In this document: positions 7,841 to 52,265 of the stretch, piece by piece
Position numbering within the stretch: the first letter of the stretch is position 1
How the letters are laid out: each line of letters begins with the position of its first letter
NCBI RefSeq assembly: GCF_003019035.1
Contig: NZ_CP027447.1
Reading direction: 5' to 3' (one strand)
Source: Escherichia coli
Lineage (GTDB): Bacteria; Pseudomonadota; Gammaproteobacteria; Enterobacterales; Enterobacteriaceae
DNA length: 64,000 nt
Notes under the pieces: model-generated
What the model was told of the DNA's origin: nothing
The model's input: only the letters and a program-made list of their open reading frames with translations
The model's database searches: none
Program-made: the position numbers and the translations under genes

Positions 7841-7975
7841 AGTTTGCTCCTGCCATAACGTGAAGAAGCAATGACCTGGTGGTCCGTGACTTCCCTACGC
7901 TGGCATTATCCAGATCAGGTGATACGGGTATTTCTCAGCCTTTACGCAGAAGGGCACCCCGAGTCGTTTGGTTGC
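7841..7975 (-). promoter_or_regulatory. thiM 5' leader containing TPP (THI-box) riboswitch
   Basis: Minus-strand leader reads ..GGGGUGCCCUUCUGCGU.AAGGCUGAGAAAUACCCGUAUCACCUGAUCUGGAUAAUGCCAGCGUAGGGAAGUCACGGACCACCAGGUCAUUGCUUCUUCACGUUAUGGCAGGAGCAAACUAUG, the well-known thiM TPP aptamer with CUGAGA box and SD-sequestering expression platform. Confidence 0.9.
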
Positions 7976-19044: not shown

Positions 19045-22000
19045 ATGAGACACTTTATCTATCAGGACGAAAAATCACATAAATTCTGGGCGGTGGAGCA
19101 GCAGGGAAACGAGTTGCATATCTGTTGGGGAAAAGTTGGCACCAAAGGGCAAAACCAAGTAAAAAGTTTTGCGGATGCTGCGGCAGCGGCAAAAGCGGAG
19201 CTTAAGCTGATCGCGGAGAAGGTGAAGAAGGGATATGTGGAGCAAGCGAAGGATAATTCTTTGCAACCTTCCCAAACGGTAACGGACTCTCTCAAGGTAG
19301 CGGACTTATCCACCATTATTCAGGAACAACCCTCTTTCGTAGCAGAAACCCGTGCGGCTGACAAAAATACAGATGCTGTTTTACCGTGGCTGGCAAAAGA
19401 TATTGCTGTCGTTTTTCCGCTTGAAGTCGTACCCACCACCTTAAGCCATCGCCGCTTTCCCGGAGATCCTGTTACACCTGTAGATAAATTAACCCAGTTA
19501 CGTCGCTTAGCCTGTGGCGTGTCGCAACGGGATAACAAAACAGCTACATTTGACTTCAGCGCCTGTACTTTAGAGTGGCAAAACTTCATCGCTCAGGCGA
19601 TCGATCTGATTAACAGCCCGAAAACGACAAAATTACCATCACCGGTAATGGCTGTACTCGCGGCACTTGAACTGCACTGCACGAGATATAAAGAGCGTGA
19701 GGATGTTATGGATCAGATTATTCAGGAAGGCGGTCTGGAATATGCTACTGATGTAATAATACATCTTCAACAAATATCTATTGAATGGGATTATGTCAAC
19801 AATAATATTGTTTTCCTGTCGTCTGGCATTTCACCTGATTACTTGCAGCAATATTCCAGCTTTGAATTACGCCTACGTAAACATTTATCACTGGCGGAAG
19901 AGTCTCTCTGGCAAAAATGTGCACAAAAACTTATTGCCGCAGTTCCACATATTCCAGAATGGCGGCAACCATTAATTGCTTTGTTATTACCCGAAAAACC
20001 AGAAATTGCACATGAAATTGCCCAGCGTCTACTGGGGCAAAAGAAATTACCCTCGCTTGAGTGGCTAAAAATAGTGGCGACTGATGAGCACATTCTTGCC
20101 TCATTAGAAAAATATCACGAGCCATATGCCATTTTTGATGATTACTATTGTGGTGCGATATGGTCAGCCACCGTATTACAGGAGCAAGGTGTTGCAGCCC
20201 TGCCCCGATTTGCACCCTATGTCGCAAGTGACTACTGCGCCGATGTGTTGAGTCATATCAATCATCCGTTCGCATTAACACTGCTTATACGTGTAGCCGG
20301 GCATACTAAACGCTGTCACGATCGAATGACGAAAGCCTGCGCTGCGTTCCCACACGCAGCACTGGCAGCACTGGCGGAACTTCTAGTGCAAAAAGAAGAG
20401 AATAGTTGGCGCATTATGCTAATGACGATGCTTATCTCGCAACCTACACTAGCAGAACAGGTCATTCCCTGGCTTTCGACACCCGCAGTTGCAGTGCTGA
20501 AATCATGCCAGCAACAACTGAAACAGCCCTCAAACCATGCCAGTGCCGATCTACTGCCGGCCATAGTAGTCTCCCCACCATGGCTTTCGAAAAAGAAAAA
20601 ATCGCCGATTCCGGTGCTTGATTTAGCACCGCTCAACCTCGAATCCATATGCACAATAACCGACACAGAAGCTAAAGAGTTTCAAACTCATTGGGACTGG
20701 GAACCGCATAAGCCAGGTGAAGGTGCTAAAGATTTCCTTTACTCGCTGGGGTATCGCCGCTGGGATTTTGACACATATAAATATATCGGCGCTTCTGACT
20801 CGGCAATTGACGCATGGGAACGTGAGGACTTCGCTACACTCATCCAAATGTTTAAAGCCCACCATGCACCGTATCAGGGGGAGTGGCATCTCAACTCACT
20901 TCCCTTTTTACCTATGCAAAAAGCGATTAAACTATGGGAATTTCTCAGCAAAGAGCCGCATACCGCGGTAAAACCTGTCATGCTTTATTTGCGACTGGCA
21001 GGTATGAGTGGTTTTCTACACTCGTTTTCACGCTACCCTCAAGAAGGTTTTGCGGTTGCTAATTATTTTGCCGCAACGGAACTGGCTCCTGCCGTCGCCC
21101 GCGCCTTTAACAAACTCAAAACTCTACGACAAGACGCCCGCACCTGGCTGCTGAAATATCCGGAACATGCCATTACCGGCCTGTTGCCTGCGGCACTCGG
21201 CAAAGCCGGTGAATCCCAGGATAACGCCCGTGCCGCTTTACGTATGTTGATTGAAAATGGTTATCCGTCATTACTGCAAGAAATCGCCCAGCGTTATAAC
21301 CAGCCGGAAGTAACCGATGCGGTGAACGCTCTACTTGCGCTCGATCCCTTAGATAATCACCCGACTAAAATCCCGACACTTCCGGCCTTTTATCAGCCAT
21401 CGCTCTGGACGCGCCCGGTATTAAAAGCAAACGCCCAATCACTGCCAGATAGCGCCCTCTTCCACCTCGGTGAAATGCTCCGCTTCCCTCAGGAAGATAC
21501 GCTGTATCCGGGGTTATTACAGGTGAAAGACGCCTGTACTGCCGACTCACTGGCTGAGTTTGCCTGGGATCTGTTTACCGCCTGGCAGACCGCTGGCGTG
21601 CCGTCGAAAGAGAGCTGGGCGTTCACTGCATTAGGTGTTCTTGGCAACGATGACACCGCCCGCAAACTGACGCCATTAATCCGCGCCTGGCCTGGCGAAT
21701 CTCAGCATAAACGTGCCACCGTTGGGTTGGATATTCTCGCTGCTATCGGCAGCGATATCGCCCTGATGCAGCTTAACGGCATCGCCCAGAAACTGAAATT
21801 CAAAGCCTTACAGGAGCGGGCGAAAGAAAAAATTGCCGACATTGCCGAAAGTCGCGAACTCACAGTGGCAGAACTTGAAGATCGGTTAGCACCGGATCTC
21901 GGTCTGGATGATAACGGTTCGCTGCTGCTGGATTTCGGGCCACGGCAGTTCACCGTCAGCTTTGATGAAACCTTAAAACCGTTTGTGCGTGATGCTTCCG

Positions 22001-22833
22001 GCAGCCGCCTGAAAGACTTGCCTAAACCGAACAAAAGCGATGATGAAACCCAAGCGAACGATGCAGTTAACCGCTACAAACTGTTGAAAAAAGATGCGCG
22101 TACCGTTGCCGCCCAGCAGGTAGCAAGGCTGGAATCCGCCATGTGCCTGCGCCGCCGCTGGTCGCCGGAAAACTTTCAGCTCTTCCTGGTTGAGCATCCG
22201 CTGGTTCGCCACTTAACCCGCCGTCTGATTTGGGGCGTTTATAGCACCGAAAACGAGCTACTGGCTTGCTTTCGCGTGGCGGAAGATAACAGCTACAGCA
22301 CCGCAGACGATGATCTTTTCACCCTGCCGGAAGGCGATATCTCTGTTGGCATTCCTCACGTTCTGGAAATATCACCCACGGATGCTGCCGCCTTTGGTCA
22401 ACTTTTTGCCGACTACGAACTGCTACCGCCGTTCCGCCAGCTCGACCGTAACAGTTACGCCCTGACAGAAGCCGAGCGCAACGCCAGCGAACTGACCCGC
22501 TGGGCAGGCAGAAAATGCCCGAGCGGTCGGGTAATGGGGCTGGCGAATAAAGGCTGGATAAAGGGCACCCCGCAGGATGGAGGCTGGATCGGCTGGATGA
22601 TCAAACCTCTCGGTCGCTGGTCGTTAATCATGGAAATCAATGAAGGATTTGCAGTTGGTATGTCGCCAGCCGAACTCAGTGCCGAGCAACTCTTAAGTAA
22701 GCTGTGGCTATGGGAAGGCAAAGCGGAAAGCTATGGCTGGGGGAGCAATTCAACACAGGAAGCGCAGTTCTCCGTACTCGATGCCATCACCGCCAGCGAG
22801 CTAATTAACGATATTGAAGCCCTTTTTGAATAA
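19045..22833 (+). CDS. molR: Giant WGR-like-domain protein (1262 aa); intact molR-type ORF (pseudogene fragments in K-12)
   Basis: N-terminus FWAVEQQGNELHICWGKVGTKGQ.. fits a WGR-like domain; paralogous to the adjacent yehI over most of its length; continuous 3789-nt ORF without frameshift. Confidence 0.85.
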   Translation: MRHFIYQDEKSHKFWAVEQQGNELHICWGKVGTKGQNQVKSFADAAAAAKAELKLIAEKVKKGYVEQAKDNSLQPSQTVTDSLKVADLSTIIQEQPSFVAETRAADKNTDAVLPWLAKDIAVVFPLEVVPTTLSHRRFPGDPVTPVDKLTQLRRLACGVSQRDNKTATFDFSACTLEWQNFIAQAIDLINSPKTTKLPSPVMAVLAALELHCTRYKEREDVMDQIIQEGGLEYATDVIIHLQQISIEWDYVNNNIVFLSSGISPDYLQQYSSFELRLRKHLSLAEESLWQKCAQKLIAAVPHIPEWRQPLIALLLPEKPEIAHEIAQRLLGQKKLPSLEWLKIVATDEHILASLEKYHEPYAIFDDYYCGAIWSATVLQEQGVAALPRFAPYVASDYCADVLSHINHPFALTLLIRVAGHTKRCHDRMTKACAAFPHAALAALAELLVQKEENSWRIMLMTMLISQPTLAEQVIPWLSTPAVAVLKSCQQQLKQPSNHASADLLPAIVVSPPWLSKKKKSPIPVLDLAPLNLESICTITDTEAKEFQTHWDWEPHKPGEGAKDFLYSLGYRRWDFDTYKYIGASDSAIDAWEREDFATLIQMFKAHHAPYQGEWHLNSLPFLPMQKAIKLWEFLSKEPHTAVKPVMLYLRLAGMSGFLHSFSRYPQEGFAVANYFAATELAPAVARAFNKLKTLRQDARTWLLKYPEHAITGLLPAALGKAGESQDNARAALRMLIENGYPSLLQEIAQRYNQPEVTDAVNALLALDPLDNHPTKIPTLPAFYQPSLWTRPVLKANAQSLPDSALFHLGEMLRFPQEDTLYPGLLQVKDACTADSLAEFAWDLFTAWQTAGVPSKESWAFTALGVLGNDDTARKLTPLIRAWPGESQHKRATVGLDILAAIGSDIALMQLNGIAQKLKFKALQERAKEKIADIAESRELTVAELEDRLAPDLGLDDNGSLLLDFGPRQFTVSFDETLKPFVRDASGSRLKDLPKPNKSDDETQANDAVNRYKLLKKDARTVAAQQVARLESAMCLRRRWSPENFQLFLVEHPLVRHLTRRLIWGVYSTENELLACFRVAEDNSYSTADDDLFTLPEGDISVGIPHVLEISPTDAAAFGQLFADYELLPPFRQLDRNSYALTEAERNASELTRWAGRKCPSGRVMGLANKGWIKGTPQDGGWIGWMIKPLGRWSLIMEINEGFAVGMSPAELSAEQLLSKLWLWEGKAESYGWGSNSTQEAQFSVLDAITASELINDIEALFE

Positions 22834-22842
22834 GGAAAGAGC

Positions 22843-25800
22843 ATGGACAAGGAATTACCGTGGCTGGCGGATAACGCGCAACTGGAACTGAAATATAAAA
22901 AGGGTAAAACACCACTCAGCCATCGCAATTGGCCGGGTGAACCGGTGCCTGTTATCACTGAAAGCATCATCCAGACACTGGGTGATGAATTGCTACACAT
23001 TGCTGAGAAGAAAAAAAACATTGTCTGGCGTTATGATAATTTTTCACTGGAGTGGCAGTCCGCCATCACGCAGGCCATCAACTTGATCGGCGAACACAAA
23101 CCCTCAATCCCGGCCCGGACAATGGCGGCGCTAGCCTGTATCGCGCAAAATGATAGCCAACAGTTACTCGACGAAATCGTCCAACAAGAGGGACTGGAAT
23201 ATGCGACTGAAGTGGTGATTGCACGCCAGTTTATTGTACGGTGTTATGAGAGTGATCCTCTGGTAGTAACATTGCAGTATCAGAAGGAGGACTATGGCTA
23301 TGGCTATGGCTATGGCTATGGCTATGGCTATGGTTATCGCTCAGAAACCTATAACGAATTCGATCTCCGACTGCGTAAGCATCTCTCTCTGGCAGAGGAA
23401 AGCTGCTGGCAGCGTTGCGCCGACAAACTCATTGCCGCACTGCCAGGACTACCCCAAGTTCGCCGTCCTTTTATTGCACTCATCCTCCCGGAAAAACCAG
23501 AAATCGCCAATGAGTTGGTAGGCCTTGAATGCCCGTGGACTCATTTTCATTCTAAGGAGTGGTTAAAAGTTGTTGCTACTGACCACAGGGCAGTGGGAAA
23601 ACTCGAACGCTACTGGAGCCAGGATATATTTAGCGATCGCGAAGCCAGCTACATGTCGCATGAAAACCACTTCGGCTACGCGGCCTGCGCCGCCCTTTTG
23701 CGCGAACAAGGAATTGCAGCCGTTCCACGCCTCGCGATGTATGCCCATAAAGAAGATTGCGGTAGCCTGCTGGTACAAATTAACCATCCGCAGGTCATCC
23801 GCACCCTGCTGTTAGTTGCTGATAAAAACAAACCCAGCCTGCAACGTGTGGCTAAATACAGTAAAAACTTCCCCCATGCGACGCTTGCCGCACTGGCAGA
23901 GCTTCTGGCGTTAAAAGAACCGCCTGCACGCCCTGGTTATCCAATCATCGAAGACAAAAAGCTGCCTGCACAGCAAAAAGCTCGAGATGAATACTGGCGT
24001 ACGCTGTTACAAACGCTGATGGCATCGCAGCCACAACTGGCAGAAGAGGTGATGCCGTGGTTAAGTACTCAAGCCCAGGCAGTGCTGAATAGTTATTTAT
24101 CGGCACCGCCCAAAACGGTTATTGATAGCACCGATAACATCCAAATGCCTGAAATCCTCGTTTCACCACCGTGGCGTAGTAAGAAAAAAATGACAGTTCC
24201 ACGTCTTGATTTGGCACCGTTCGAATTAACGCCGCAAGTTTACTGGCAACCAGGCGAACGAGAGAGGCTTGCCGCCACTGAGTCTGCCCGTTATTTCAGC
24301 ACGGAATCTCTTGCGGAACGCATGGAACAAAAAAGTGGACGAGTTGTATTACAGGAGCTGGGTTTTGGAGATGATGTATGGCTGTTTTTGAATTATATAC
24401 TCCCCGGAAAACTGGATGCTGCACGCAATTCACTCATTGTTCAGTGGCATTACTACCCAGGGCGGGTTGAAGAGATCATGAATGGCTGGAGCTCCCCGGA
24501 AGCTCAATTAGCAGAACAGGCGCTTCGCAACGGTCACGTAGAAGTGTTAATTAACATATGGGAAAATGACAGCTACTCACGCTATCGTCGGGAAAAGAGT
24601 ATCTGGAACCTGTATTTATTGGCGCAGTTGCCGCGTGAGATGGCTTTGACTTTCTGGCTACGTATCAATGAGAAAAAGCATCTGTCTGCGGGTGAGGACT
24701 ATTATCTCAGTATCTTCGGATTGGATGCTCTACCAGGTCTGCTGTTGGCTTTTTCACATCGTCCAAAAGAAACATTTCCATTAATTTTAAATTTCGGCGC
24801 AACAGAACTGGCCCTGCCCGTTGCCCGCGTCTGGCGACGTTTCGCGGCGCAGCGTGATCTGGCTCGCCAGTGGATTTTACATTGGCCGGAACATACAGCT
24901 ACTGCACTTATCCCTCTTGTCTTCACCAAATCCAGCGATAATAGCGAAGCTGCATTACTTGCCCTGCGTTTACTTTACGAACAGGGACATGGCGAGTTAC
25001 TGCAAACCGTGGCAAACCGCTGGCAGCGTACAGATGTGTGGCCTGCCCTGGAGCAATTACTTAAACAGAGTCCAATAGAGATTTACCCGACACGCATTCC
25101 AAAAGCCCCTGATTTCTGGCAGCCGGCAATGTGGTCCAGGCCGCGCCTTATCACGAATAATCAACCTGTTACCGATGACGCTCTGGAAATTATCGGCGAA
25201 ATGCTGTGCTTTACCCAGGGCGGACGTTTTTATAGCGGACTGGAACAACTGAAAACTTTCTGCCAGCCGCAAACGCTGGCAGCTTTTGCCTGGGATCTCT
25301 TCACCGCGTGGCAACAAGCTGGTGCTACCGCAAAAGACAACTGGGCATTTCTGGCGTTAAGTCTCTTTGGCGACGAAAGCACGGCACGGGATCTGACGAC
25401 ACAGATCCTTGCCTGGCCACAAGAGGGCAAATCTGCCCGTGCTGTCAGTGGTCTGAATATACTTACTCAGATGAATAATGATATGGCACTGATACAGCTG
25501 CATCATATATCGCAACGGGCGAAATCCCGCCCCTTACGTGATAACGCGGCGGAATTTCTTCAGGTGGTCGCAGAAAATCGTGGGCTAAGCCAGGAACAGT
25601 TAGCGGACAGATTAGTCCCAACACTGGGTCTTGATGATCCGCAGGCGTTGAGTTTTGATTTTGGTCCCCGGCAGTTTACCGTTCGCTTTGATGAAAACCT
25701 TAACCCGGTTATCTTTGATCAGCAAAACGTTCGCCAGAAAAGCGTTCCCCGGTTGCGCGCCGATGACGATCAACTGAAAGCGCCCGAGGCACTGGCCCGA

Positions 25801-26565: not shown

Positions 26566-26886
26566 ATGATCGTGCAAAAAGAGCTGGTCACTATTTACGA
26601 TTATGAGGCCCCTGTACCTGAAGAGCCGTTTTCCTTCAGACTTGAGATCCATAAATGCTCTGAATTATTTACAGGTTCCATCTACCGGCTGGAGCGATTC
26701 CGGCTACATCCAACATTTCATCAACGTGATCGAGAGGATATCGACCCGCTAATAAATGATGCGTTGATTTATATAAGAGATGAGTTTATTGATGAGCGAA
26801 AATTACGGGGCGAATCACCAGAAACGGTAATAGCCATTTTTAATCGTGAACTACAGAATATATTCAACCAAGAAATAGAAAAATAG
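26566..26886 (+). CDS. yehK: Small acidic protein of unknown function, 106 aa
   Basis: ORF with GGGGGAAGCG upstream; no recognisable motif; recalled as YehK. Confidence 0.8.
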   Translation: MIVQKELVTIYDYEAPVPEEPFSFRLEIHKCSELFTGSIYRLERFRLHPTFHQRDREDIDPLINDALIYIRDEFIDERKLRGESPETVIAIFNRELQNIFNQEIEK

Positions 26887-26894
26887 CTTTATTA

Positions 26895-26920
26895 AAGGGG
26901 GGAAACGGTATTCCCCCTTA
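26895..26920. terminator. Bidirectional GC hairpin between convergent yehK and the small toxin-like gene
   Basis: GGGGGG-aaacggtatt-CCCCC stem-loop flanked by A/T; placed between the 3' ends of yehK (+) and the 29-codon ORF (-). Confidence 0.5.
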
Positions 26921-26940
26921 GATGCGTTTCAATTTGCCCG

Positions 26941-27030
26941 TTACTTCAACAAATCAATCAGCCGTAACAGAGCCACTAATAACTCCAGTACGGCAATGAG
27001 CACGGTTAACTTTTGTGTCAGCGTGTCCAT
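26941..27030 (-). CDS. zorO: 29-aa hydrophobic peptide, type I toxin-like (ZorO-like)
   Basis: Minus-strand ATG (27028-27030) with AAGGAGAG SD; translates to MDTLTQKLTVLIAVLELLVALLRLIDLLK, a single predicted TM helix; matches my recollection of ZorO from O157:H7; long structured 5' leader with an antisense target site. Confidence 0.65.
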   Translation of the reverse strand: MDTLTQKLTVLIAVLELLVALLRLIDLLK

Positions 27031-27211
27031 CCGCTCTCCTTATTAAGGAGCGCAACACCAGCATCTTACCCTTACACTGCCTGTCGATACTGGTTTACGT
27101 ATGTTGGACCACGATGTTGCACTCCGGATCAGGGCACTACCTGCGGCACCACCCGTCCGGTAGCCAGGACTTGAAATGGGTTCGATCCGGCGCAACGTCC
27201 CAACAGTCAGG

Positions 27212-27268: not shown

Positions 27269-27352
27269 GTTGGAACACGATGTTGCACAGGCCGTGGTGT
27301 TAGGCCTGAAAGTAGTAAATAAAAGAACCTGCCTCACCAGCAGGTTTTTTTA
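27269..27352 (+). ncRNA. orzO: Candidate antitoxin sRNA (OrzO-like), ~80 nt, divergent from the toxin gene
   Basis: Starts ~7 nt after TATAAT; 5' seed GTTGGAACACGATGTTGCAC (27269-27288) is 19/20 identical to 27103-27122, so it is complementary to the toxin mRNA leader; internal hairpin CAGGCC..GGCCTG; ends in intrinsic terminator. Confidence 0.55.
27326..27352 (+). terminator. Rho-independent terminator of the candidate sRNA
   Basis: AACCTGC-ctcacca-GCAGGTT stem-loop followed by TTTTTTT. Confidence 0.8.
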
Positions 27353-30841: not shown

Positions 30842-31970
30842 ACTGAACGATCTTCTGACCACCCGTGAGCTACAACGCTGGCGATTAATTCTTGGCGAAG
30901 CGGCAGAAACGACGCTTTGTGGGCTGGATGACAACGCCCGGCAGATAGACCACGCGCTGGAGTGGCTGTACGGGCGCGATCCTGAACGGCTCCAGCGTGG
31001 TGAACGCTCTGGTGGATTAGGTGGCTCAAATCTCACCACCCCTGAGTGGATCAACAGTATTCACACGCTGTTTCCGCAACAGGTGATTGAGCGACTGGAA
31101 AGCGATGCCGTACTGCGCTACGGCATTGAAGATGTGGTGACGAATCTCGACGTGCTGGAACGTATGCAGCCTTCTGAAAGCCTGCTACGCGCCGTTTTGC
31201 ACACCAAACATCTGATGAATCCCGAAGTACTGGCTGCCGCCCGCCAGATAGTGCGCCAGGTTGTTGAAGAAATTATGGCTCGACTGGCAAAGGAAGTTCG
31301 TCAGGCTTTTTCTGGTGTCCGCGATCGCCGTCGCCGCTCATTTATTCCACTGGCGCGAAACTTTGATTTCAAAAGTACTCTGCGCGCCAACCTGCAACAC
31401 TGGCACCCGCAACACGGCAAGTTGTATATCGAATCCCCCCGCTTTAACAGCCGCATTAAACGCCAAAGCGAACAATGGCAACTGGTCTTACTGGTTGATC
31501 AAAGCGGATCAATGGTGGACTCGGTGATCCACTCAGCGGTGATGGCGGCCTGTTTATGGCAGTTACCCGGTATTCGTACCCATCTGGTGGCGTTTGACAC
31601 CAGCGTGGTTGATCTCACGGCAGACGTTGCCGATCCGGTAGAGTTATTAATGAAAGTGCAATTAGGCGGCGGAACCAATATCGCCAGTGCCATGGAATAT
31701 GGTCGGCAACTTATTGAACAACCAGCGAAAAGCGTCATTATCCTCGTGAGTGATTTTTATGAAGGGGGTTCATCATCATTGCTGACGCATCAGGTGAAAA
31801 AGTGTGTCCAGAGCGGCATCAAAGTGCTGGGGCTGGCAGCGCTCGACAGCACCGCAACGCCTTGCTATGACCGCGATATGGCCCAGGCGCTGGTTAATGT
31901 TGGCGCACAAATAGCCGCAATGACACCGGGTGAACTGGCTACCTGGCTTGCGGAGAATTTGCAGTCATGA
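30834..31970 (+). CDS. yehP: von Willebrand factor A (VWA) domain protein with MIDAS motif, 378 aa
   Basis: ATGTCTGA overlap with yehM stop; MIDAS-like LVLLVDQSGSM (DxSxS); ORF-track 5' extension rejected. Confidence 0.9.
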   Translation: MSELNDLLTTRELQRWRLILGEAAETTLCGLDDNARQIDHALEWLYGRDPERLQRGERSGGLGGSNLTTPEWINSIHTLFPQQVIERLESDAVLRYGIEDVVTNLDVLERMQPSESLLRAVLHTKHLMNPEVLAAARQIVRQVVEEIMARLAKEVRQAFSGVRDRRRRSFIPLARNFDFKSTLRANLQHWHPQHGKLYIESPRFNSRIKRQSEQWQLVLLVDQSGSMVDSVIHSAVMAACLWQLPGIRTHLVAFDTSVVDLTADVADPVELLMKVQLGGGTNIASAMEYGRQLIEQPAKSVIILVSDFYEGGSSSLLTHQVKKCVQSGIKVLGLAALDSTATPCYDRDMAQALVNVGAQIAAMTPGELATWLAENLQS

Positions 31971-33967
31971 ATTCACTACGTCCGGAATTATTAGAACTGA
32001 CGCCGCAGGCCCTGACGGCGTTAAGCAATGCCGGTTTTGTTAAGCGCAGTCTTAAGGAACTGGAAAATGGCAACGTCCCGGAAATCAGCCATGAGAACGG
32101 CGCTTTAATCGCCACCTTCAGTGACGGTGTCCGTACCCAACTGGCGAGCGGTCAGGCACTGAAAGAGGCCCGGTGCAGTTGCGGGGCCAGCGGCATGTGC
32201 CGCCATCGCGTGATGCTGGTGTTAAGTTATCAGCGACTTTGCGCCACCACTCAGCCCACGGAAAAAGAAGAAGAGTGGCAGCCTGCAATCTGGCTGGAAG
32301 AACTGGCTACCCTGCCCGATGCCACCCGCAAACGTGCACAGGCGCTGGTCGCTAAAGGCATCACCATTGAGTTATTCTGTGCGCCGGGCGAAATTCCCTC
32401 AGCCCGCTTACCGATGAGTGACGTGCGTTTTTATTCCCGCAGCAGCATTCGCTTCGCCCGCTGTGATTGCATTGAAGGAACGCTGTGTGAACATGTCGTA
32501 CTGGCGGTACAGGCCTTTGTCCAGGCCAAAACTCAGCAGGCGGAATTTACTCATTTAATCTGGCAGATGCGCAGCGAACACGTCACATCATCTGACGATC
32601 CGTTTGCCAGCGAAGAAGGCAACGCGTGTCGTCAATATGTTCAGCAATTAAGCCAGGCATTATGGCTTGGCGGCATCAGCCAGCCGCTTATTCACTACGA
32701 GGCCGCTTTCAGCCGCGCGCAGCAAGCGGCAGAGGCCTGCAACTGGCGCTGGGTGAGTGAGTCACTACGACAGCTACGGGCAAGCGTTGATGCCTTCCAC
32801 GCCCGCGCCAGTCACTATCATGCCGGAGAATGCTTACGTCAGCTTGCGGTATTAAACAGTCGATTAAATTGCGCACAAGAGATGGCGCGCCGCGACAGTA
32901 TCAGTGAAGTTCCTCCCATGCCGTGGCGAACGGTGGTTGGCGCAGGCATTGCTGGCGAAGCAAAGCTTGATCATTTGCGGCTGGTGTCGCTAGGTATGCG
33001 TTGCTGGCAGGATATTGAGCAGTATGGTTTACGCATCTGGTTTACCGATCCCGACACCGGCAGTATTTTGCACCTTTCGCGCAGTTGGCCGCGAAGTGAA
33101 CAGGAAAACTCACCGGCAGCGACGCGTCGGCTGTTGAGTTTTCAGGCAGGCGCGCTGGCGGGTGGACAAATTGTTTCACAGGCAGCGCGTCGCAGTGCCG
33201 AAGGCGAACTGCTATTCGCGACCCGCAACCGCTTAAGTAGCGTTGTGCCGCTGTCGCCAGACGCCTGGAAAATGCTGAGTGCGCCGCTGCGCCAGCCAGG
33301 CATTGTGGCTTTACGTGAATATTTACGCCAGCGTCCCCCCGCCTGCATACGACCACTCAACCAGGTCGATAACTTATTTATTCTGCCAGTCGCTGAGTGT
33401 ATTTCACTCGGTTGGGATAGCAGCCGCCAGACACTGGATGCGCAGGTAATCAGCGGCGAAGGTGAAGATAACGTGCTGACATTATCCCTACCAGCCTCTG
33501 CCTGTTCGCCCTTTGCTGTTGAACGCATGGCGGCGCTTTTGCAACAAACAGACGACCCCGTGAGTCTGGTTTCTGGCTTTGTCAGCTTTGTAGAGGGGCA
33601 ATTGACACTGGAACCACGGGTGATGATGACAAAAACCCGCGCCTGGGCGCTGGACGCAGAAACTGCGCCTGTAGCACCGCTACCTTCTGCCAGCGTTTTG
33701 CCTGTGCCGTCTACCGCTCATCAGTTGCTGATGCGCTGCCAGGCGTTACTTATTCAACTGCTCCATAACGGCTGGCGCTATCAGGAACAGAGTGCTATTG
33801 GTCAGGCAGAGTTGCTGGCGAATGACCTCACCGCGGTGGGTTTTTATCGGCTGGCACATGTGTTGGGACAATTTCGTAATACAGAAAGCGAGGCACGGGT
33901 AGAAGCAATGAATAACGGTGTTTTGCTTTGCGAACAATTATTCCCCATGCTTCAGCAACAAGGATGA
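31967..33967 (+). CDS. yehQ: SWIM zinc-finger protein, 666 aa
   Basis: ATGA overlap with yehP stop; two CxCxnCxH SWIM-type motifs (ARCSCGASGMCRHRV and ARCDCIEGTLCEHVV) in the N-terminal third. Confidence 0.88.
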   Translation: MNSLRPELLELTPQALTALSNAGFVKRSLKELENGNVPEISHENGALIATFSDGVRTQLASGQALKEARCSCGASGMCRHRVMLVLSYQRLCATTQPTEKEEEWQPAIWLEELATLPDATRKRAQALVAKGITIELFCAPGEIPSARLPMSDVRFYSRSSIRFARCDCIEGTLCEHVVLAVQAFVQAKTQQAEFTHLIWQMRSEHVTSSDDPFASEEGNACRQYVQQLSQALWLGGISQPLIHYEAAFSRAQQAAEACNWRWVSESLRQLRASVDAFHARASHYHAGECLRQLAVLNSRLNCAQEMARRDSISEVPPMPWRTVVGAGIAGEAKLDHLRLVSLGMRCWQDIEQYGLRIWFTDPDTGSILHLSRSWPRSEQENSPAATRRLLSFQAGALAGGQIVSQAARRSAEGELLFATRNRLSSVVPLSPDAWKMLSAPLRQPGIVALREYLRQRPPACIRPLNQVDNLFILPVAECISLGWDSSRQTLDAQVISGEGEDNVLTLSLPASACSPFAVERMAALLQQTDDPVSLVSGFVSFVEGQLTLEPRVMMTKTRAWALDAETAPVAPLPSASVLPVPSTAHQLLMRCQALLIQLLHNGWRYQEQSAIGQAELLANDLTAVGFYRLAHVLGQFRNTESEARVEAMNNGVLLCEQLFPMLQQQG

Positions 33968-47677: not shown

Positions 47678-47850
47678 GATGAGCATTCAGATAGTGGTTC
47701 ACGCGCACGGGTTGCGCACCGCCGGAGTAAGGATTTACTGAGGCTAGCGACGCCATCATAACGAGCAAAAAGTGCGATCGTCAAAGAAGAATCGTGAGGA
47801 AATGCTGCATTGCTGACATTTACGCCAGCAATGCAGCGCAAAAGAACTTT

Positions 47851-49305: not shown

Positions 49306-50067
49306 CTATTCTGGGTTGAACTGCGGATTCGCCAACATAAAGCCGCCATCCACTATCAACGACTGCCCGGTGGTGTAATTTGCGCCCTCCGAACAAAGCC
49401 ATACCACCAGGCTGGCAATCTCATGCGTTGTGCCAAAACGTCGCAAGGGAATCGAAGGCTCCGCGTCAGGCTTCACGTCGCCGCCATCCATGCCGTTCAT
49501 TGGCGTGGCGATCGCCCCAGGTGCGACTGCGTTCACCAAAATTTTATGCCTGACCAGCTCCAGCGCCATTGCTTTGGTTAACCCGCCGAGCGCATGTTTA
49601 GCGGCTGTGTAGGCGCTGGCATCCGGCAGCGGCGTATGTTCATGTACCGATGTAATGTTGATGATGCGACCGCCCTGCCCTTGTTTCACCATCTGACGAG
49701 CCGCAATTTGCGAGCATAAAAATGCGCCATCGACATCAACGGTAAAAATCTTGCGCCACTCATCGAAAGCCATATCAAGAAACGGCGCTTTGGTCATTGC
49801 GCCCGCATTATTCACCAGCACATCAATACGCCCCAGCCGTTGAATAAGTTTCTCCAGCGCCAGTGCCCCTTCTGGTAGATTGCCGAGATCCAGTTGCACG
49901 ATCTCCGCACGTACGCCGTAGCTAACTACCTCACGCGCGGTATCTTTTGCCCCTTCTTCATCTGAGTGCCAGGTAATGCCAATATCAAACCCCTGCTGCG
50001 CCAGTAATAACGCGCACTCTTTGCCGATCCCCGAATCGGAGGCGGTAATTATCGCGACCTGTGCCAT
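49306..50067 (-). CDS. yohF: Short-chain dehydrogenase/reductase (SDR), 253 aa
   Basis: Rossmann motif TASDSGIGKE; start ATG 50065-50067 (MAQVAIITASD..). Confidence 0.9.
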   Translation of the reverse strand: MAQVAIITASDSGIGKECALLLAQQGFDIGITWHSDEEGAKDTAREVVSYGVRAEIVQLDLGNLPEGALALEKLIQRLGRIDVLVNNAGAMTKAPFLDMAFDEWRKIFTVDVDGAFLCSQIAARQMVKQGQGGRIINITSVHEHTPLPDASAYTAAKHALGGLTKAMALELVRHKILVNAVAPGAIATPMNGMDGGDVKPDAEPSIPLRRFGTTHEIASLVVWLCSEGANYTTGQSLIVDGGFMLANPQFNPE

Positions 50068-50119: not shown

Positions 50120-51556
50120 TCAGCGTTTGTAACCCCCGCCCAGCGCACCGGTGAGTTGAATGGAAGCATCCAGCCACTGTCCCTGCAAGAGCAGACCATT
50201 GGCCCGCTCACGCAGCGCGGGGATTCTGGCTTCGCTGACGCGGGAACCAGCAATGATGCCCGCGTTAAAGCGCGCCTGCGCAAGACCTACCACACGCAAG
50301 GCATCGTGCTCAATTTGCGCCTGATGCTGGTTTTTCTCCGCCAGTGTCTGAACCTGGCTGGCCGCCCGCGCCACGTCATTTACCGCTTCAACCACCGCTT
50401 TGTTGTAGCTGGCGATAGACAAGTTGCTTTCGGCTTTTGCAATATCGAGGTTGGCGTTAAGACGACCACTATCGAAAATGGGTAGCGTCAGGCCTGCCGT
50501 AACGCCCATTTGCTGCGCGGAATGACGGAACAGATCGCTTAAGTGCAACGCATCCTGTTGCAGGAAGGCCATCAGGTTGATGTCAGGATAAAATGCCGCT
50601 TTTGCCGCATCAATAGTGCTTAACGATGACTCAACGTACCAGTGCGCCGCCTGCAAATCTGCCCGCCGGGCCAGTAAGGAGTACCCCAGTTCATCAGGAA
50701 GCTGGCTTGCCACTTTCGGCAACGCGACCGGATTAAGCTTCAATGCCTTTGTCTGGTGATTTGTAAGTGCGCTTAACCGTGCCTCAATAATTTTCATTTT
50801 CCCCGCGACATCGTTGAGCTGCTGCCGGGTTTTGCTGGCATTAATATCGGTTTCCACACCTTCAACTGCAGAAGTAATCCCGTTCTGATATAGCTGGCGA
50901 TCGGTGGCGATAATGGTGTTCTGCTCTTTTTCGATTTGCTGTAAGACCGTGTTTAACGCCGCCTGGGTTTGCCACTCCCAGTACAGGCGGGCTACGCTGC
51001 CAGCCAGCAATTGGCGGGTTTGCTCGCGTTCCGCCGCCCGTGCTTTAACCGTACCGAGGCGAGCAGTAACCTCCGCCCGATTCTTTCCCCAGATATCGAG
51101 ATGCCAGCCCGCCGTTAAGCCAAAAGTACCGTTGGTGTACCACGGACCGGTCGTACCTGCGGCAGGATCGTTCAGAGCAAACGGCCCCATTAACCCTTCT
51201 GCAGACATTTTTTGCCGCTCCATATCCGCAGAAAAGTCGATCTGCGGACCATCCTGAGTGGCAACTGCCTTCGCCTGGGCTTCAGCCAGCTGAATGCGCT
51301 GTTCAGCCACCTGCATATCCGGTGCGTTCTGTAGTGCGTTATTAATTAATGAGGTGAGTTGATTATCGTGATACTCCAGCCACCATTGGCTGTCTGGCCA
51401 ACCATTTTTCAGCGCCGTGGGTAATGCGGTGTCAACTTGTGTCGCGGGTGTTTGCTGGCTTAACGCCTGGCGGGTTTCATGCATAGGCGCACACCCGGCC
51501 AGCATCAGTAACAGCGGAAAACAGGCGATGGCTGGATAAAAAGAATCACGATTCAT
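50120..51556 (-). CDS. mdtQ: Outer-membrane efflux lipoprotein (OMF/NodT family), intact ~478 aa
   Basis: Continuous ORF; start at ATG 51554-51556 gives signal peptide with lipobox (..FPLLLMLAGC); recalled as a pseudogene in K-12 but uninterrupted here. Confidence 0.85.
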   Translation of the reverse strand: MNRDSFYPAIACFPLLLMLAGCAPMHETRQALSQQTPATQVDTALPTALKNGWPDSQWWLEYHDNQLTSLINNALQNAPDMQVAEQRIQLAEAQAKAVATQDGPQIDFSADMERQKMSAEGLMGPFALNDPAAGTTGPWYTNGTFGLTAGWHLDIWGKNRAEVTARLGTVKARAAEREQTRQLLAGSVARLYWEWQTQAALNTVLQQIEKEQNTIIATDRQLYQNGITSAVEGVETDINASKTRQQLNDVAGKMKIIEARLSALTNHQTKALKLNPVALPKVASQLPDELGYSLLARRADLQAAHWYVESSLSTIDAAKAAFYPDINLMAFLQQDALHLSDLFRHSAQQMGVTAGLTLPIFDSGRLNANLDIAKAESNLSIASYNKAVVEAVNDVARAASQVQTLAEKNQHQAQIEHDALRVVGLAQARFNAGIIAGSRVSEARIPALRERANGLLLQGQWLDASIQLTGALGGGYKR

Positions 51557-51779
51557 GGGGGAATAATCAGGTAAGAAAAGGTGCGCGGAGATTACCGTGT
51601 GTTGCGATATATTTTTTAGTTTCGCGTGGCAATACATCAGTGGCAATAAAACGACATATCCAGAAAAATATACACTAAGCGAATGATATCTTCCGATTTA
51701 TCTTAATCGTTTATGAATAGCGGCAAAGGGCTTCGTTTTTTCCTATACTTATTCAGCACTCACAAATAAAGGAACGCCA

Positions 51780-51863
51780 ATGAAAATTATACTCTGGGCT
51801 GTATTGATTATTTTCCTGATTGGGCTACTGGTGGTGACTGGCGTATTTAAGATGATATTTTAA
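51780..51863 (+). CDS. yohP: Small membrane protein, 27 aa
   Basis: AAGGAA RBS; translates MKIILWAVLIIFLIGLLVVTGVFKMIF (single TM helix). Confidence 0.8.
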   Translation: MKIILWAVLIIFLIGLLVVTGVFKMIF

Positions 51864-52230
51864 AAATCAGATATGGCATATAAGTTGTCAGGTCAGTAAC
51901 TCGATATTTTGTGTACTTGATTTACAAACAGCTCCGGTGTTGGTGGCGTCAAAATCGCTGAAGCGTTCCCCGAAGGCCGGGGCAGCCCACATGGATGTGG
52001 GCTGAGGGCGCGTCTTACAAGGACGTTACCTCGCGCCCGACCCGGTAGCCGAAGGGGATAAGCTGAAGGTACCGCGCAGCGGCGATTTTGTTCGCCAGAG
52101 CCCGGGGGTGCAGGGGGAGGAGGCGATTGTCCTCCCCCTGCGCGCTCCTTGCGCCAGTGGCAATATGTGGCTTAGCTCATGAAAGGAGCGCAACAAGATG
52201 ATGAAGCTAAATAAGCGATTCATTGTCTCA

Positions 52231-52265
52231 GATAAGCTGCGATTCCACTATTATCGCAGCTTATC
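52231..52265. repeat. Perfect 12-bp inverted repeat spanning the dusC stop codon
   Basis: GATAAGCTGCGA-ttccactatta-TCGCAGCTTATC; 3' arm lies inside the last codons of dusC; no flanking T-tract on either strand. Confidence 0.6.

Follow-up and report, generated by a model that had tools for sequence, protein, structure and literature searches.

Each protomer of an outer-membrane factor (OMF) contributes strands to a 12-stranded trimeric barrel and long alpha-hairpins that form a periplasmic tunnel. The genes of the OMFs VceC, OprM and CusC/SilC each lie in an operon with the cognate pump, and both MdtP (mdtNOP) and VceC (vceCAB) work with EmrA-type adaptors. A 2025 review counts three TolC homologues in Escherichia coli (CusC, MdtP and MdtQ), gives 12% identity between MdtQ and TolC, and describes mdtQ as a conserved member of the E. 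coli core genome that is encoded alone and whose function has not been elucidated (PMC11762307). Its pseudogene status in K-12 is, like this core-genome conservation, already known in the literature (PMC11762307), and since RefSeq and EcoCyc-style annotation already flag the K-12 pseudogene, it carries little weight as a discovery.

Here we describe mdtQ as it occurs in a 64,000-nucleotide stretch of E. coli DNA (NZ_CP027447.1; hereafter the window), and add the exact lesion in K-12, its frequency in the population, and the evidence from selection and synteny. The gene in the window is very probably an ordinary wild-type mdtQ (yohG) allele, encoding one of four E. coli TolC-type outer-membrane factors.

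An uninterrupted mdtQ gene of the NodT subfamily

The mdtQ frame runs unbroken from an ATG at 51556 to a stop codon at 50120-50122 and comprises 478 codons and the stop in 1437 nt. A preliminary description of this DNA had reported a continuous frame with exact coordinates, leaving unstated that it lies on the minus strand. In a mechanically made list of open reading frames the mdtQ frame reaches an upstream TTG at 51646 (508 aa); we prefer the ATG as the start, since it fits the NCBIfam MdtQ model from position 1 and is common to all orthologues.

Table 1. Coordinates of mdtQ, its sequence features and its neighbours in the window.
Feature	Coordinates	Strand	Remarks
mdtQ (formerly yohG) CDS	50120..51556	-	478 aa + stop; OMF lipoprotein, NodT subfamily
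Lipoprotein signal peptide	51491..51556	-	Codons 1-22, MNRDSFYPAIACFPLLLMLAGC
Lipobox LAGC (L19-A20-G21-C22)	51491-51502	-	Read from the translation, after the hydrophobic stretch
A5 run (A4 in K-12)	51405..51409	-	Gene nt 148-152, codons 49-51 CTG AAA AAT; TTTTT on the + strand
First OEP repeat	50759..51352	-	Residues 69-266 against PF02321 profile 3-187/187; best stretch
Second OEP stretch	C-terminal half of MdtQ	-	PF02321
yohF, SDR oxidoreductase	49306..50067	-	52 bp downstream of mdtQ; SCU-301 annotation; no efflux component
mdtQ-yohP divergent intergenic region	51557..51779		223 bp; presumed site of the mdtQ promoter
yohP, 27-aa small membrane protein	51780..51863	+	Divergent from mdtQ; neighbour, no channel part; from annotation

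The NCBIfam equivalog model for MdtQ (NF008524) matches residues 1-478 along the whole of its profile (1-478/478) with 1020.1 bits against a cut-off of 650, and the gene matches the mdtQ annotated in E. coli SCU-301 (WP_096986566.1) at 100% identity. This score, the RefSeq annotation of the identical gene and the conserved dusC-yohP-mdtQ-yohF synteny together identify the gene as mdtQ, the name that the preliminary description had given it. The protein also covers positions 4-460/460 of the profile for the NodT-type OMF subfamily (TIGR01845; 274.1 bits, cut-off 210.05), and the Pfam OEP family (PF02321) matches it in two stretches (E 6e-30). With its OEP repeats, its TIGR01845 match and its lipobox, MdtQ belongs to the NodT lipoprotein subfamily of the OMF class (TC 1.B.17). 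Other memberships were considered and rejected. The MdtP model (NF007390) gives 352.8 bits, below its cut-off of 597, which makes MdtQ a paralogue and not an orthologue of MdtP; the TolC type I secretion model (TIGR01844) gives 53.7 bits against a cut-off of 225.15, and the CusC-type, AdeK/AdeC and TdeA models each score MdtQ under their cut-offs.

The lipoprotein signal peptide and lipobox noted in the preliminary description are borne out by the translation. The N-terminus reads MNRDSFYPAIACFPLLLMLAGC-APM and is common to all orthologues aligned; the LAGC motif fits the pattern [LVI][ASTVI][GAS]C closing an N-terminal signal peptide, and Gly21, Cys22 and Ala23 are invariant in an alignment of E. 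coli, E. albertii, Salmonella and Citrobacter. By the lipobox rule, Cys22 is predicted to be the acylated first residue of mature MdtQ. Under the established Lol-sorting rules an alanine at position +2 leads to the outer membrane, and the alanine found at this position in MdtQ predicts such sorting here.

An AlphaFold2 model of MdtQ, computed from an alignment of eight orthologues that are all at least 80% identical, has a mean pLDDT of 41 and a pTM of 0.35. As this is too poor for a fold search, the fold assignment rests on homology to solved OMFs and on the published model. Sequence matches in the PDB extend over nearly the whole of the mature protein and comprise VceC (1yc9, E 2.4e-39), OprM, SilC, CusC, CmeC, OprN, MtrE and OprJ; for VceC, OprM and CusC/SilC the E-values range from 2.4e-39 to 1e-21.

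A one-nucleotide deletion inactivates mdtQ in K-12

The preliminary description had called mdtQ a pseudogene in K-12, and this is correct. In MG1655 (NC_000913.3) the gene, b2139 (2227323-2228758), has a length of 1436 bp, carries a pseudogene annotation and is frameshifted, not intact; PGAP likewise labels mdtQ 'frameshifted' in K-12 derivatives. Pairwise alignment of the window gene with b2139 shows 40 substitutions and exactly one gap, with no further indel or stop, and thereby locates the lesion at codon 49/50, where K-12 reads GCTGAAAATGG and the window reads GCTGAAAAATGG: a 1-bp deletion has taken one A from the A5 run. The window retains A5 and the open frame, and the K-12-type pseudogene allele is not present in it. 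With A4, the K-12 frame is shifted after codon 49; the frame that carries the signal peptide terminates about 20 codons past the deletion, while the frame of the channel body is open up to the normal stop but is without a signal peptide. The function of mdtQ is thus lost in the K-12 laboratory lineage by a one-A deletion that parts the signal peptide from the channel body. Since b2139 has acquired no second stop or indel, this inactivation looks recent. Slippage, either ribosomal (-1, at G-AAA-AUG) or transcriptional, might in principle rescue the K-12 frame, but appears unlikely, as the A4 run is too short and there is no canonical slippery heptamer.

Sequencing errors typically arise in homopolymer runs, and the lesion sits in a run of A; the K-12 pseudogene could on these grounds be taken for an artefact of sequencing or annotation, with mdtQ equally intact in K-12. 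The A4 allele is found exactly in 355 independently assembled genomes, which refutes this reading and leaves it with virtually no chance of being correct. It is further opposed by the agreement of the RefSeq MG1655 record and PGAP, which call the gene a pseudogene and frameshifted, respectively, and by the nature of the genomes that carry the allele: all 60 of those listed are K-12 laboratory derivatives (among them MG1655, C600, DH5alpha, DH1, J53, AG100, NCM3722 and ER strains).

Intact mdtQ is the norm in E. coli

The lesion survey comprised the count of the K-12 allele, the count of the intact allele and the coverage classes across 5426 complete E. coli genomes. In 5390 of the 5426, mdtQ is covered to at least 80%, always on the chromosome, and about 36 genomes have coverage below 80% or no match. 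An exact 66-mer of the window form, with A5, has a match in 4585 of 5407 genomes, and an exact K-12 65-mer spanning the deletion in 355 of 5403; the remaining ~470 genomes have a substitution or another change within the probe. PJ-T13 (4.9 Mb genome, 1436-bp mdtQ) carries an allele identical to that of K-12. At the nucleotide level, the window mdtQ is 95-99% identical to the gene in the other complete E. coli genomes (96.7-98.1% among those listed). An intact mdtQ is the norm in E. coli and K-12 is the exception.

Lesions of mdtQ outside K-12 exist but are rare. STEC379 (NZ_CP091024.1; 2248-3573 of the locus examined) lacks the 5' 60% of mdtQ and has an IS1A at the junction, a loss that is independent of the K-12 lesion. 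Independent truncations of mdtQ have also been reported in some S. Typhi and Paratyphi A isolates (PMC9241588). This repeated loss, through the K-12 frameshift, the IS1-associated deletion in STEC379 and the truncations in Typhi and Paratyphi A, suggests that mdtQ is dispensable in some niches.

Conservation of sequence and gene order

Seven lineages were compared (the window, a repaired K-12, H22, an ST131, an O157:H7, an O26:H11 and TUM14697), with dN/dS (Nei-Gojobori) of 0.035-0.21 at dS of 0.02-0.12; these values point to strong purifying selection on mdtQ. The window protein differs from those of the other six lineages by 4-20 amino acids, and Thr39, in the variable linker after the lipobox, is unique to the window allele among the seven. 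Full-length orthologues are 95% identical in E. albertii, 82% in Salmonella and 80-82% in Citrobacter; among the best 120 homologues, all are enterobacterial orthologues with at least 80% identity.

The gene order dusC-yohP-mdtQ-yohF-yohD-yohC-pbpG is common to the window and SCU-301, K-12 and Salmonella, and to Citrobacter except that yohF is missing there; the order kept in both Salmonella and Citrobacter, dusC-(yohP)-mdtQ-(yohF)-yohD-yohC-pbpG-dld, includes dld. The E. albertii gene is syntenic as well and likewise has no pump or adaptor gene beside it. No adaptor or pump gene lies within ~5 kb of mdtQ in E. coli, Salmonella or Citrobacter. From the sequences compared, MdtQ is an old, conserved, orphan OMF. 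The preliminary description had called it a potentially functional outer-membrane factor, and dN/dS of 0.04-0.21 together with conservation across genera support that wording.

A Peptidase-S11 RNA motif (RF03039, 72.8 bits) lies at 47682-47762 on the minus strand, upstream of pbpG, and is an expected cis-regulatory element.

Flanking regions and expression

The divergent region between mdtQ and yohP has only three substitutions relative to K-12. No Shine-Dalgarno-like sequence stands ahead of the mdtQ start codon (..CTGATTATTCCCCC-ATG), and no sigma-70 site was found directly upstream by a simple consensus scan, which does not exclude a promoter; a promoter has been described as being without experimental confirmation (PMC11762307). 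Given the lack of a Shine-Dalgarno sequence and of a consensus sigma-70 promoter upstream, expression of mdtQ may be low or conditional. On the downstream side, the scan placed a terminator-like site after yohF, at 49306-49291, and none in the interval that separates the mdtQ stop from the yohF start. Co-transcription of mdtQ and yohF is possible, since the two genes share a strand, are 52 bp apart and have no terminator-like site between them; the pairing is not obligatory, as Citrobacter lacks yohF beside mdtQ.

Some evidence of expression comes from the proteomics of a porcine E. coli isolate, where MdtQ is among the up-regulated proteins (PMC12584432); we regard this as weak evidence that the protein is made. 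On the other side of the intergenic region, the Salmonella YohP is matched by PF25659, and 'the mdtQ pseudogene' adjoining yohP in K-12 has been mentioned in the literature (PMC12719787). The interval between yohP and dusC contains a TRIP1c repeat, as described previously (PMC10888264), at 51866-52257 of the window (core 51940-52201), which is inverted relative to K-12: positions 51940-52201 match K-12 2229376-2229115 on the opposite strand with 89.7% identity, and the flanks are collinear.

These features of the locus bear on whether the intact gene is cryptic, a partnerless orphan channel with negligible expression that is heading for decay, with K-12 merely the first well-known case. The lack of an adjoining adaptor or pump gene, the lack of a Shine-Dalgarno sequence and of a recognizable consensus promoter, and independent inactivation in K-12, STEC379 and Typhi/Paratyphi A are all in line with such silence, as are the reported mdtQ phenotypes, which are weak at most. 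The range of dN/dS between E. coli lineages (0.04-0.2) is however not expected of neutral sequence, the gene keeps its full length and 80-82% protein identity over Escherichia, Salmonella and Citrobacter, the A5 form is exact in 4585/5407 genomes, and MdtQ has been reported in a proteome. Weighing both sides, we consider it improbable that mdtQ is silent and decaying, and favor the view that it is an ordinary wild-type gene.

The lineage of the window and other differences from K-12

The window had been attributed to a non-K-12 lineage, and comparison with complete genomes agrees. Relative to MG1655 it is collinear from K-12 position 2177462 on, at 93-97.7% identity block by block and ~97% overall. 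E. coli SCU-301 (NZ_CP051751.1), isolated by rectal swab from a healthy student, matches the segment 40000-64000 at 100% identity, and the next best complete genome reaches 98.6%; the run of 100% identity to SCU-301 extends over 40.7 kb, and the window as a whole departs from the SCU-301 record in just four substitutions, all within its left 23 kb, and in the copy number of a hexamer, which accounts for 30 bp. This hexamer is a CTATGG tandem repeat of 8.3 copies at 23292-23341, inside yehI, and is 30 bp (5 units) shorter than in the SCU-301 record, with yehI encoding 1220 aa in the window, 1230 aa in SCU-301 and 1210 aa in K-12. Among the 5426 complete E. coli genomes, SCU-301 alone has at least 99% identity to window 40000-64000; the strain lineage is therefore sparsely represented among complete genomes.

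The preliminary description had pointed to an intact molR and an extra toxin locus as further marks of this lineage, and both are present. An intact DUF4132 frame of 1262 aa occupies 19045-22833 (+), where K-12 has yehF and the yehH pseudogene (former molR); its part at 20628-21060 has no K-12 alignment at megablast level. Between yehK and yehL, a segment of 285 bp (26886-27170) that is absent in K-12 carries an open frame for a 29-aa ZorO-like type I toxin at 26941-27030 on the minus strand (MDTLTQKLTVLIAVLELLVALLRLIDLLK). Just beyond this segment, the OrzO-P antitoxin RNA (RF02083, 98.9 bits) lies at 27276-27351 on the plus strand; the RNA is kept in K-12 at 2204409-2204484 with 97.4% identity, and K-12 seems to retain an orphan OrzO-P antitoxin sRNA after loss of the toxin. 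The gene for the SWIM zinc finger protein YehQ is intact at 31967-33967 (+) and encodes 666 aa, whereas in K-12 codon 615 has changed from GAG to an in-frame amber TAG, which shortens the product to 614 aa. The window thus places several K-12-specific lesions side by side, namely the mdtQ frameshift, the yehQ amber stop, the yehH/molR pseudogene and the loss of zorO. A TPP riboswitch (RF00059, 72 bits) lies upstream of thiM at 7875-7971 (-), an expected cis-regulatory element.

A model for the role of MdtQ

Homology to solved OMFs, coupled with general knowledge of tripartite efflux, suggests a model for the path and function of MdtQ. The precursor would be exported by Sec and would receive its lipid on Cys22, within the LAGC lipobox, after which the Lol system would transfer the lipidated protein to the outer membrane. 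There MdtQ may trimerize, giving a beta-barrel pore and, in the periplasm, a long alpha-helical tunnel; this tunnel would be the exit duct of an inner-membrane transporter and periplasmic adaptor encoded elsewhere in the genome. By analogy with its closest relatives, MdtP and VceC, the most likely partner class would be an EmrA-type adaptor with an MFS or PET-type pump.

The substrate of such a duct need not be a drug. MdtQ could be a functional outer-membrane channel whose role lies in the export of an endogenous metabolite, a siderophore or a peptide, or in envelope stress; the 'multidrug resistance' name rests on small susceptibility shifts only, and the conserved neighbors yohP, yohF, yohD and pbpG are genes of the envelope and metabolism, with no pumps among them. 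Against this, its closest characterized relatives, VceC, OprM, MdtP and AdeK, are drug-efflux ducts, and we hold a role outside drug efflux to be possible, with the odds against it. Such a role would refine the best explanation, an intact wild-type OMF gene, and nothing observed contradicts it.

The deletion phenotype of yohG (Sulavik et al. 2001) was reportedly measured in K-12, where mdtQ is already frameshifted, and for this reason the published phenotype would say little about intact MdtQ. More generally, as K-12 is the exception, efflux studies restricted to K-12 cannot tell what MdtQ does. We tentatively put forward, as a conjecture, that MdtQ of natural E. coli is an active orphan duct for one or more pumps that have been assumed to use TolC only (EmrAB-, EmrKY- or MdtNO-like), perhaps exporting an endogenous compound, and that it has been overlooked through the K-12 frameshift; the K-12 'yohG deletion' phenotype would then come from the neighboring genes (yohP, yohF) and not from MdtQ.

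Comparison with related channels

The K-12 conceptual translation (P33369) and the O157:H7 protein (Q8X659), both MdtQ/YohG, represent the same gene in the same position between yohP/dusC and yohF. The window differs from K-12 MdtQ in having the fifth A, and with it the open frame, and in seven amino acids. The closest paralogue family is that of MdtP (YjcP), the OMF of the mdtNOP operon and likewise a NodT-type lipoprotein, to which residues 17-477 of MdtQ align (NF007390, E 2.8e-105); MdtP is encoded with its own adaptor and transporter, whereas mdtQ stands alone. TolC differs in being no lipoprotein, while MdtQ has a lipobox. VceC of Vibrio cholerae (1yc9), OprM and CusC/SilC are homologous but distant OMFs, solved as trimers, which provide the template of a beta-barrel and a periplasmic alpha-tunnel docking the adaptor; unlike these channels, MdtQ is an orphan with no pump gene beside it.
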